Shown here in pieces: positions 18,653 through 21,609 of a DNA stretch of 64,000 nucleotides; position 1 is the stretch's first letter; each line of letters starts with the position of its first letter. Origin of the DNA: an uncultured Rivularia sp. (lineage in GTDB: Bacteria; Cyanobacteriota; Cyanobacteriia; Cyanobacteriales; Nostocaceae). A program made the translations under genes and the position numbers. The stretch is taken from NCBI GenBank assembly GCA_963665115.1, contig OY762007.1, positions 4,480,001 through 4,544,000 on the forward strand. Reading direction: 5' to 3'. The notes beneath the pieces were generated by a model, which worked only from the letters and a program-made list of their open reading frames with translations, had not been told where the DNA came from and did no database searches.

Positions 18653-20074
18653 TCAAGTTAATGCTTTTAACAATGCCTGTAATTTAAGTTGGATTTCTGC
18701 AAATTCTTTTTCTGGGTCTGAACCGGGTACAATACCAGCACCAGCATAAAGCAGGGATGATTGACTGTTGTTGTCGATTAGTGCGGAACGAATTCCGACG
18801 ACAAATTCACAGTTACCTTCGGAATCTATCCAACCTAAAGGTGCTGCATATAAACCCCTTTCAAAACTTTCATAACGGCGAATTTCCTGACAAGCAACTT
18901 CGGGTGCAACACCGGCTACTGCTGGTGTCGGATGCAGTTGAGCAACTATTTGCAAGGGATGCACGTTGCGAGGAACTTTTGCGGCGATGGGTGTCCACAA
19001 GTGCTGAATATTTGATAGCTGTCGCAATCTGGGTGTTGAAACTTGAGGTAATAAGCCTAAACTGAGCAACTTTTGAGTTATAAAATCAATTACTAAGGAA
19101 TGTTCGTGTCTTTCTTTGTCGCTGCTGAGTAAGATATTGGCTATTTTTGCGTCTTCTGCTGGTGTTTTCCCCCTAGCTGCGCTTCCAGCTAAAGCATCGG
19201 TGGTTAATTTTTGATTATGAATGGCAATCAATGTTTCTGGAGAAGCACCAATAAAGTTTTGTCCTTTGCCATTGCTTGTAGAAAATATACAGCAATTAGG
19301 ATGTAGCTGTCGGAGATTATTTAATGATTTAAATAAGTTTAATGGAGCGATCGATTGAATATTAAGAGCATCCGCTAAGACAATTTTACTATAATGACCT
19401 TTACTAATATCTTCTAAAGCCGATAATACCGATCTTTTGAATTTACTAGATTTGGTAATCGAGCTTTTAATAAACTTAGGTTTAGAATCATTTAAGCTAA
19501 TAAATTCATATTTTAAATTATTAATATCTGCAATTTTAGCCCATAAACTTTGTAAATAATTTTCTATATTTAAATCTCCATCAATTTGAATATTTGCCCT
19601 TAATACACAGCGTTCGTCTTTACGAGTAACTTGCCATTTAGGTAAAAAAATGGTACCTGGAGAAAAAGGATAGTTTTGTTGAAGATTTGTATCAAAAAAA
19701 CTAAAGCTGCAAAAAAATGCTGGATTCGTAAAAAAATTATTTACATTGCAAAAATTAATGATTTTGCTGAGATTGTATTTTATGAACTTCTCAGCATCAG
19801 AAAAACGTCCTTTGCCTTCAACTTCAAATTTTGTTACCGCACCAATCGCAGCAATAGCTTGTTTTTTGCTGGGGCTTTCCCAGTAGAAATTAAGCCGATC
19901 TAATGTAGCTAGTTTCTGGAAGACAACCAGAGGATCTACCGAGTCAATTTCTAAGGCAATACTAGCTATTTGCGTGCAATTATTCTTAATACAATATGCT
20001 CGTTTTTTTACAAGAAATTGGTATAGCCCCTTATGGTATACAAGAAACTCGGCAGAACATGGTGAAACTGTCAT
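18653..20074 (-). CDS. menF: isochorismate synthase
   Basis: GASPE, ALAGS, KERHEH, LHPTPAVAG, GIRSA, YAGAGIV; located in the men cluster. Confidence 0.93.
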   Translation of the reverse strand: MTVSPCSAEFLVYHKGLYQFLVKKRAYCIKNNCTQIASIALEIDSVDPLVVFQKLATLDRLNFYWESPSKKQAIAAIGAVTKFEVEGKGRFSDAEKFIKYNLSKIINFCNVNNFFTNPAFFCSFSFFDTNLQQNYPFSPGTIFLPKWQVTRKDERCVLRANIQIDGDLNIENYLQSLWAKIADINNLKYEFISLNDSKPKFIKSSITKSSKFKRSVLSALEDISKGHYSKIVLADALNIQSIAPLNLFKSLNNLRQLHPNCCIFSTSNGKGQNFIGASPETLIAIHNQKLTTDALAGSAARGKTPAEDAKIANILLSSDKERHEHSLVIDFITQKLLSLGLLPQVSTPRLRQLSNIQHLWTPIAAKVPRNVHPLQIVAQLHPTPAVAGVAPEVACQEIRRYESFERGLYAAPLGWIDSEGNCEFVVGIRSALIDNNSQSSLLYAGAGIVPGSDPEKEFAEIQLKLQALLKALT

Positions 20075-20379
20075 GGATCTATAAATAGTAAATTTTTTTG
20101 AAGTTCTCTTCCTAAAGCATCATGAATCGTGGTCGTATTTCTACAGGTAGCACATTCAGACGCTGTTTTGCCAGCTAACCAAGGAGGCTCATCAACCTTA
20201 ATGGTAAAAACCTCCTTAACTGCTTCGAGTGTAGATTTTACAGGAGCTTTCGCTCGAAATACAGCCCTGTTGGACAAGGGATGTAGCAAAGAGGGATAAC
20301 TGACAAAATAACAGCTATGAGGGGTGCGCTTGCGGCTTTTTGCCGGTAGAAAATTTGGCAATTTCATTGATTGCGACTG

Positions 20380-20604
20380 GTCACTGACTCAACCCTTAAG
20401 GGATTGAGCTTGCAAAGAACAAACTTTGCAACGCAAGCAGCGACTAGCCCAGTGAGCCTAATCTCGGTAAACACTTCCGAATGCTTCCCCAGTTCGGACA
20501 CATTGTAAGACTATTTGTTTAGTCGTTGGGTAAAGCCAAGTCATCTTAGATTAGGTGGGCGAGGGGACTATTACGGGTTTGCTGATTCCTGGGATTATAT
20601 CCAT
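20380..20604 (+). ncRNA. omega-RNA/HEARO scaffold (guide would be the flank at about 20360-20379)
   Basis: GCTTGCAAAG..CTTTGCAACGCAAGC; GACTAGCCCA; CACTTCCGAATGCTTCCCCAGTTCGGA; TGGGCGAGGGGAC (TCCCC/GGGGA pseudoknot); ends at GGATTATATCCAT where iscB normally begins. Confidence 0.78.
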
Positions 20605-20712
20605 TTAAAAATCAGCCCTTCAAAACACAAAGTCCACGGCAAATAAATTTGCTCGTGTCGCTTCCCTCCCAGGGCTAAAACCTGAGAGTTTCTCGCTTTC
20701 CGCGTGTTTCTT
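20380..20712 (+). mobile_element. non-autonomous IS200/IS605 (IscB-type) element: omega/HEARO RNA with iscB ORF deleted
   Basis: Starts GTCA with subterminal hairpin CTCAACCCT-TA-AGGGATTGAG; HEARO-like core; distal hairpin CTCCCAGG-GCTAAAA-CCTGAGAG; immediately followed by ATGA. Confidence 0.8.
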
Positions 20713-21609
20713 ATGACTACAAAGCTGATTTTATATCCCAACATAAAGCTATGGATGGCGGCAATTAAACCGCCAATGTATTGCGTTGCGATTATGCCGA
20801 TTTGGGTAGGAACTGCTGTGGCTTTTGCAGAAACAAAAGTGCTTCATGCAGGAGTTTTTTGCACGTTTTTAGCTGCTGCCATTTTGATTCTCGCTTGGGA
20901 AAATTTGAGCAATGATGTGTTCGATTCCGATACGGGAATTGATATTAATAAACATCATTCTTTAGTAAATTTGACGGGCAATAGACAATTAATTTTTTGG
21001 CTGGGAAATTGCTTTCTAAGTCTGGGATTGCTGGGAATACTAGCAATTAGTTGGTGGCAACAAGACTTAACTTTAATTGGAATAATTTTACTGTGTTGCG
21101 GTTTAGGATATCTTTATCAAGGACCTCCTTTCCGTTTAGGCTATCAAGGATTAGGGGAAATACTTTGCTTTTTCGCCTTTGGTCCTTTGGGAGTAGCAGC
21201 AGGATATTACAGTCAAACTCAAAGTTGGTCTTTAACGAGTTTGGCGGCTTCGTTAATCGTTGGTATTGCCACAACTTTGATATTATTTTGTTCCCACTTT
21301 CATCAAGTAAAAGACGATTTAGCAGCAGGAAAACTTTCGCCAATTGTTCGTTTGGGAACTCAGAAAGGTTCTTATGTTTTAAACTGGTTAACTGGCAGTA
21401 TTTACGCGCTGATATTGATATTTATACTTTGCGGAATTTTTCCCTTATGGACGCTTTTAAGCTGGTTTAGTTTACCTTTTGCTGCAAAACTATGTAACCA
21501 CGTCGCGCAAAATCACAACCAACCCCTTAAGGTAGATAACTCCAAATTTATTGCGATCGCAGTTCAATTTTGGTCTTGTTTGCTATTAGGATTGGGGTTT
21601 GTTTTATGA
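20713..21609 (+). CDS. menA: 1,4-dihydroxy-2-naphthoate phytyltransferase
   Basis: WMAAIKPPMY, NDVFDSDTGID, YQGPPFRLGY; start at ATG 20713 (MTTK). Confidence 0.93.
   Translation: MTTKLILYPNIKLWMAAIKPPMYCVAIMPIWVGTAVAFAETKVLHAGVFCTFLAAAILILAWENLSNDVFDSDTGIDINKHHSLVNLTGNRQLIFWLGNCFLSLGLLGILAISWWQQDLTLIGIILLCCGLGYLYQGPPFRLGYQGLGEILCFFAFGPLGVAAGYYSQTQSWSLTSLAASLIVGIATTLILFCSHFHQVKDDLAAGKLSPIVRLGTQKGSYVLNWLTGSIYALILIFILCGIFPLWTLLSWFSLPFAAKLCNHVAQNHNQPLKVDNSKFIAIAVQFWSCLLLGLGFVL

Follow-up and report, generated by a model that had tools for sequence, protein, structure and literature searches.

In an uncultured Rivularia strain, a 333-nt mobile element is inserted cleanly before the vitamin-K1 gene menA and ends exactly at the ATG of this gene. 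Within the window, i.e. the whole stretch of 64,000 nucleotides analysed, it occupies positions 20380..20712 (plus strand) and belongs to the ORF-less IS200/IS605 elements of the ISC1 type, without a target duplication. Our analysis demonstrates the insertion and its boundaries, the anatomy of its ends, the IsrB-type sequence and structure of its RNA, the existence of a family of such elements and the enrichment of this family at start codons. We think it probable that the element is an ORF-less mini-transposon that was placed in trans by TnpA and carries an IsrB-type guide, predicted to be co-transcribed with menA, with which an IsrB encoded elsewhere would nick element-free alleles. The menA insertion by itself is a modest finding. 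However, stand-alone guides for IsrB would allow one to ask directly if a transposon can be maintained by a nickase in trans. The bias towards start codons, in turn, represents a non-splicing route for sparing the host and implies that mobile DNA has rewritten the leaders of numerous core genes in cyanobacteria.

The insertion before menA and the ends of the element

The gene downstream of the element (20713..21609, plus strand) is intact, heads menA-menC-menE and is identified as menA by a TIGR02235 score of 402 bits (cut-off 225), in agreement with the initial annotation, which had taken the ATG after the element as the menA start. It is separated from the divergent gene menF (18653..20074, minus strand) by a conserved non-coding spacer of ~306 nt in addition to the element. 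We compared 30 menA loci, comprising the one in this genome, 16 same-genus loci with an intact 5' end, 12 loci from other genera and one locus (L022) whose 5' end is missing. None of the 16 same-genus loci that retain their 5' end contains the 333 bp, and no match to the element was detected at any of the 29 other menA loci. The menF-menA spacing is 300-310 nt in 16 of 16 same-genus loci, as opposed to 639 nt in this genome, and amounts to 306 nt at L002, i.e. the spacing of this genome minus the element. Moreover, the sequence GCGACTG is found directly 5' of ATGA in 11 of these 16 loci. Given the spacing and the GCGACTG ends in the relatives, the insertion was exact and produced no target duplication. 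The exact joint of 20379 to 20713 is also present in contigs of runs X1 and X9, along with many strain differences. By contrast, the contigs of X5-X7, which are near-identical to this sequence and may come from the same source, and those of X8, with 14 differences in 2048 nt, contain the element and lack this joint. Together with the absence of any ORF of at least 80 aa from the element in the ORF listing, these results confirm what had been proposed for its coordinates, for its GTCA start and the ATGA that follows it, for its lack of a protein, for the clean insertion at an ATGA start and for the empty site in relatives. The menF-menA spacer (20074-20379) is non-coding and ~90% conserved in the 16 congeners, with a nearly invariant stretch at 20074-20160, and has a similar length in other genera. 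A 98-aa minus-strand ORF in this region (20071-20367) was rejected as a gene, its coding not being conserved.

The ends of the element have the organization expected for TnpA substrates on the minus strand. Its right end (20380..20412) comprises, in minus-strand order, the DNA guide CAAG (20412-20409), a hairpin (20388-20408) and the cleavage motif TGAC (20383-20380). Its left end (20666..20712) is composed of the TCAT flank, the DNA guide GAAA (20692-20689) and a hairpin (20666-20688), so that both of the terminal hairpins described initially are present. On the plus strand, the left end is U-rich and now lies directly 5' of the menA start. In IS608, the guide GAAT goes with the site TCAA and the guide AAAG with TTAC, and the first two guide bases pair with site bases 2 and 1, respectively (PMC5934647); our reading of these two published pairs suggests that the fourth bases pair as well. 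Both ends of the element obey this rule (CAAG/TGAC and GAAA/TCAT). In line with an IS200/IS605 mini-element, it combines a tetranucleotide target without duplication, hairpins with 4-nt guides and occurrence at unrelated sites. The ATGA at its border (20713..20716, plus strand) is at once the TnpA target (TCAT on the opposite strand), the predicted TAM and the menA start codon. Insertion would have proceeded by a peel-and-paste reaction of TnpA at TCAT on the bottom strand, with the enzyme acting in trans. This genome contains ten Y1 transposase matches; the six strongest of them include no TnpA that shares the ends and the target of the element. An excision joint is absent from the contigs of the near-identical runs X5-X7, a type of sequence that drops rare variants. 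A tnpB-only element of the same genome (L322; 5244354, plus strand) shows the same left-end type and an ATGA flank and is not located at a start codon.

A similar architecture has been described for ISC1-1_MA from the cyanobacterium Microcystis, which also begins with 5'-GTCA, targets N|ATGA without duplication and has ends in common with tnpB-only elements (IS605B) (Kapitonov et al. 2016, PMC4810608). Unlike ISC1-1_MA, the element at menA lacks isrB and carries a dedicated hairpin instead, and start codons are not mentioned in those parts of PMC4810608 that were considered.

The predicted guide RNA and its 3' cassette

The core of the element RNA (20380..20575, plus strand) scores 166 bits with a model of isrB-linked RNAs that was built from 20 of 45 isrB loci, compared with 157 bits for L033, and it is 65-76% identical to 20 isrB-linked cores. 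The same model gives no match on the iscB locus of this genome (L031) nor on the HEARO locus L032. Four loci (L033, L047, L051 and L053) have a protein-coding gene behind this RNA, in each case an IsrB-like ORF; the proteins of L047 and L053 contain RRXRR and lack HNH, whereas the iscB product at L031 has HNH. Judged by these sequence comparisons, the cognate partner of the RNA is IsrB, a nickase without an HNH domain, and not IscB. The initial annotation, which had postulated a guide cassette for IscB in trans, was thus correct with respect to the stand-alone omega/HEARO type but, according to the isrB-linked RNA model, not with respect to the partner. The HEARO-like core it had recognized corresponds to a match with the full Rfam HEARO model (RF02033) at 20380-20574 (44.8 bits; E 6e-8 for 651 bases searched), although the score lies below the Rfam gathering score of 83 and the match is absent from the gathering-threshold scan. 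The covariance-model check thus succeeded in position and missed the threshold, and the element resembles HEARO in its full-length structural match but differs from it in this score and in having no HNH ORF. The iscB locus L031 itself (8172.4-8174.0 kb) contains one intact iscB with RRXRR and HNH in an open frame and a different RNA, a HEARO RNA above the Rfam cut-off; the locus has atypical ends, and its 3' flank reaches the ATG of a long downstream ORF. L032 (8469659-8469896, minus strand), with a HEARO score of 86.8 bits (above cut-off) and no iscB, terminates with a hairpin followed by ATGA, has a tnpB gene ~250 nt further downstream and is possibly a stand-alone IscB-type RNA.

The structure was analysed in 18 ORF-less copies, using a set of 74 pairs that consists of RNAalifold helices and two pseudoknots added by hand. 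In total, 96.7% of the cells are paired and 38 pairs covary, although the covariation of the core may be inherited from isrB-bearing parents. None of 500 shuffles reached this result, in a test that is inflated by relatedness, and slid controls pair at 30-44%. In terms of pair counts, the adaptor pseudoknot (20418-20423 with 20514-20519; helix 4), the nexus pseudoknot (20486-20490 with 20563-20567; helix 8) and the terminal hairpin (helix 10), all on the plus strand, are 95.4%, 100% and 96.8% paired, with two-sided changes at 3, 2 and 2 pairs, respectively. Both pseudoknots of the IsrB omega-RNA are reported to be needed for nicking (Hirano et al. 2022, PMC9581776), and both are intact in this element, the scaffold of which appears suited to working in trans. 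RNAalifold also proposed that 20563-20576 pairs over a long range with the left end, but this helix hardly shows any two-sided change, competes with the nexus pseudoknot and was discarded. Similarly, a Rfam STnc560 match (13 bits, E 2.9) was attributed to chance.

Downstream of the core, the ORF-less elements carry a 3' cassette of their own. As described for IsrB, the terminal hairpin of the omega-RNA holds the isrB Shine-Dalgarno (SD) sequence and binds the PLMP domain (PMC9581776, in the sections covered). Correspondingly, the SL7-like terminal hairpin of protein-bearing elements holds the isrB SD and start codon, and folding indicates that in isrB loci it is closed by the first isrB codons. 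The ORF-less family has a specific hairpin in its place (20581..20616, plus strand), which keeps the inner loop of the terminal hairpin on a new outer stem and shows two-sided changes at 2 of 7 pairs, in 6 of 18 sequences each. It is followed by a covarying subterminal hairpin (20635..20657, plus strand; helices 12-13) that is present also after isrB and before tnpB genes. We identified 10 further full-length matches to the element across 8 of 26 congeners, and a motif derived from the 20581-20616 stem retrieved 63 loci, all titled cyanobacteria. As far as sequence can tell, a covarying hairpin has taken the place of the isrB gene in a widespread family. In a core tree whose isrB sample was centred on one query, the ORF-less cores are interleaved with isrB-linked cores, and their grouping in one clade is rejected (p-AU 0.0003). 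Because the ORF-less cores do not form one clade, the 3' cassette seems to move between RNA scaffolds. In all 13 isrB loci folded (L278-L318, L033), an SD-like motif and the start codon of isrB lie inside the hairpin, and the isrB start hairpin of L033 contains a compensatory change, which fits translational autoregulation.

The predicted guide consists of the final 20 nt of the native menA leader (20360..20379, plus strand). Its role is inferred from the IsrB architecture (PMC9581776) and supports the earlier notion of a flank-derived 5' guide. An RNA transcribed from the menA promoter would have the final ~20 nt of the native leader for its guide, with ATGA serving as the TAM, and cyanobacterial IsrBs are reported to recognize an NTG TAM (PMC9581776). 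The element shares with the IsrB omega-RNA, as far as described in the parts of PMC9581776 considered, the two pseudoknots, the terminal hairpin region, an NTG-compatible TAM and a 5'-flank guide. It differs in its terminal hairpin, which does not continue into an ORF any more. Compared with the empty alleles of nine relatives, the predicted guide has one mismatch in 6 of 9 cases, two and three mismatches in two others and an indel in one. Where an intact isrB is present, nicking could stimulate restoration of the element after excision. In this assembly (one contig; plasmids may be missing), we found no intact isrB, but one frameshifted, truncated copy and one C-terminal remnant, so that homing drive is likely dormant in this genome. 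An IsrB-like match is found in 20 of 26 congeners, with many full-length sequences whose frames are apparently intact. Of the homing-like drive envisaged initially, the part that stands is a scaffold that looks usable in trans, whereas the drive of this copy is likely dormant given the broken isrB. The C-terminal isrB remnant is part of a second mini element (L324; 5756371-5756761, minus strand), whose right end is 94% identical and which runs up to ATGG, where a membrane-protein gene starts.

Alternatively, the element could be an inert remnant, i.e. mobilisable DNA with an inherited RNA fold that is never loaded with protein. In agreement with this possibility, no intact isrB was found in the assembly, the element is single-copy in this genome and related copies there are decayed. 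We nevertheless regard it as unlikely in view of the near-complete pairing, including the pseudoknots, and of the family-specific covarying hairpin, which lies beyond the TnpA hairpin, at a distance of ~100 nt from the left end.

Expression of menA behind the element

The initial annotation had suspected that menA, lacking an obvious SD at the element end, might depend on removal or special processing of the element. The predicted duplex with the anti-SD of this genome indeed reaches only -2.0 kcal/mol at the element end. However, the native leader (-1.3 kcal/mol) lacks an SD as well, which makes the missing motif uninformative; among native ATGA starts, 25% of 2393 reach -4 kcal/mol. Moreover, the start region has a predicted openness of 0.42-0.58 in the presence of the element versus 0.29-0.50 in nine empty alleles, i.e. 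the start should be about as open or more open. These values speak against a need for removal or processing, and no finding in our models requires element removal for menA expression. We propose that menA may be translated directly from the U-rich end of the element. At the RNA level, runs X1, X2 and X3 derive from empty-site strains; contigs cannot show expression, and the depth over the element in X1 was left out. Joints that skip the element occur only in the diverged empty-site strains X1, X2, X3 and X9, and they carry many strain differences, which identifies them as empty alleles rather than spliced RNA, whereas X5-X8 hold the element without a joint. There is accordingly no sign of splicing in these contigs, and the Rfam scans of the element region contained no match to a group I or group II intron family. 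An internal promoter was also dismissed, with one minus-strand promoter-like site (20623-20594) versus 1.1 expected by chance.

These observations also bear on a scenario in which IscB loads the RNA and drives the element by double-strand breaks, with menA requiring its removal or processing. This genome does contain an open iscB frame encoding RRXRR and HNH, and stand-alone omega-RNAs functioning with IscB are cited in PMC9581776. However, the RNA of the element is of the IsrB type, while that of the iscB locus scores nothing on the isrB-linked model; in addition, the native leader is SD-less, the predicted accessibility of the start is not reduced and skip joints are confined to diverged empty-site strains. 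We therefore consider this scenario highly improbable and retain the IsrB-type guide as the preferred reading. The situation is reminiscent of IStrons (10.1101/2023.11.20.567912, in part), which are also IS605-family elements that are harmless in transcribed host sequence. Unlike IStrons, the element at menA shows no group I intron match and no splice joint, and its harmlessness would stem from its position, not from splicing.

Start codons as docking sites

Location at a start codon is a family-wide pattern and not peculiar to menA. Applying one boundary rule to all classes and merging duplicates, we found 35 of 49 ORF-less elements (71%) at starts, compared with 15 of 36 isrB-bearing (42%) and 29 of 70 tnpB-bearing (41%) elements, the samples being 63 ORF-less loci (6 uncalled), 46 isrB loci (6 uncalled) and the best 80 of 122 tnpB loci (5 uncalled). 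In this genome, only 2746 of 66322 ATGA sites (4%) are called starts, and starts make up 16-24% of those ATGA sites that would not break a gene, a null that comes from one genome with 7290 genes and a simple gene caller. Restricting the count to starts that an N-terminal BLAST match confirms leaves 29 ORF-less, 12 isrB-bearing and 18 tnpB-bearing elements, and an earlier boundary rule placed 36 of 49 ORF-less and 16 of 35 isrB-bearing elements at starts. An independent left-end pattern that did not include the ATG retrieved at least 120 loci, 117 of them followed by ATGA, with 70 of these 117 at starts. The ORF-less class exceeds the tnpB-bearing (p 0.0015) and isrB-bearing (p 0.008) classes, which do not differ from each other (p 1.0), but these p values overstate the case because the sites of related genomes are not independent. 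An SD supplied by the element was rejected as the cause of docking: SD-like ends are common (29-71% depending on the class, versus 25% of native starts), but have no predictive value for docking (70/123 versus 78/140, p 0.9).

The simplest account of this pattern is survivorship. ATGA insertions inside genes would be purged, whereas an insertion at the start leaves the protein intact, and short ORF-less elements may be tolerated there longest, so that starts would become over-represented mainly by survival. Alone, survivorship leaves a 2-4 fold excess of starts over ordinary intergenic sites unexplained, and both an insertion bias and RNA-guided retention are live rivals. Under guided retention, transcription together with the guide, and thus protection from excision, would be confined to copies that lie in a host 5' leader. 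This mechanism would account for the excess of the ORF-less class over both other classes, for the same-strand orientation of the next gene at 10 of 12 non-start ORF-less sites (57% expected) and for the maintained RNA structure. However, isrB-bearing elements equally need a host promoter, yet they match the tnpB baseline, and related genomes contribute sites that partly depend on each other. TnpB elements are not known to need a host promoter for their RNA, and their tnpB gene lies on the opposite strand of the element, so that guide transcription does not explain the shared baseline. Since tnpB elements share this baseline, survivorship is likelier than guide-driven selection, to which we assign a low probability. 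We are equally sceptical that TnpA itself prefers ATGA at gene starts, for instance due to local single-stranded DNA, so that the enrichment arises at insertion. With ~41% or more at starts in all three cargo classes versus a null of 16-24%, such a preference is conceivable, but it leaves the ORF-less excess unexplained, and TCAT is located on the template strand, which by our reasoning is not exposed by transcription R-loops. We regard survivorship as the probable main source of the bias.

Stand-alone omega-RNAs acting in trans and the ATGA target have been published, whereas we found no publication on start-codon docking. The enrichment is not stated in the main-text portions considered of PMC13565253, PMC4810608, PMC9755519, PMC11448079 and 10.1101/2023.11.20.567912, and an earlier remark elsewhere is possible. 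Protein-less omega-RNA elements of the PATE-like type that act in trans are likewise a published idea (Meers et al., 10.1101/2023.03.14.532601; PMC9581776), and the element resembles them as a protein-less IS605-family member carrying a trans-acting guide RNA. The published cases, as far as covered, concern IscB and TnpB, whereas here the RNA is of the IsrB type, has its own 3' cassette and belongs to a family with 71% start docking.

It is tempting to speculate, albeit with considerable reservation, that start codons are a genome-wide safe harbour for ATGA-targeting IS605 elements, and that the ORF-less family has specialised as a parasite of start codons. It would borrow the host promoter and leader as its guide, use a terminal hairpin rebuilt to capture IsrB in trans, swap cassettes by recombination and sometimes turn into a permanent leader, as at ndhA, and IsrB binding could regulate the downstream gene. 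The ndhA start of this genome (L323; ~3528066-3528194, plus strand) carries a family member reduced to its 3' half. Its right end and core are lost, the last bases of the native leader are replaced, and what is left has the appearance of a fixed leader that can no longer be excised. Two variants of such sequence occur at 8 of the 25 ndhA loci compared, out of 26 retrieved (L325-L350), and the other 17 have the native leader. In addition, a group of ORF-less elements of ~370 nt (L105, L132, L151, L156, L159, L161 and similar loci) has the same ends and a different middle; 15 of 19 are located at start codons, and they probably represent a second stand-alone RNA subtype.
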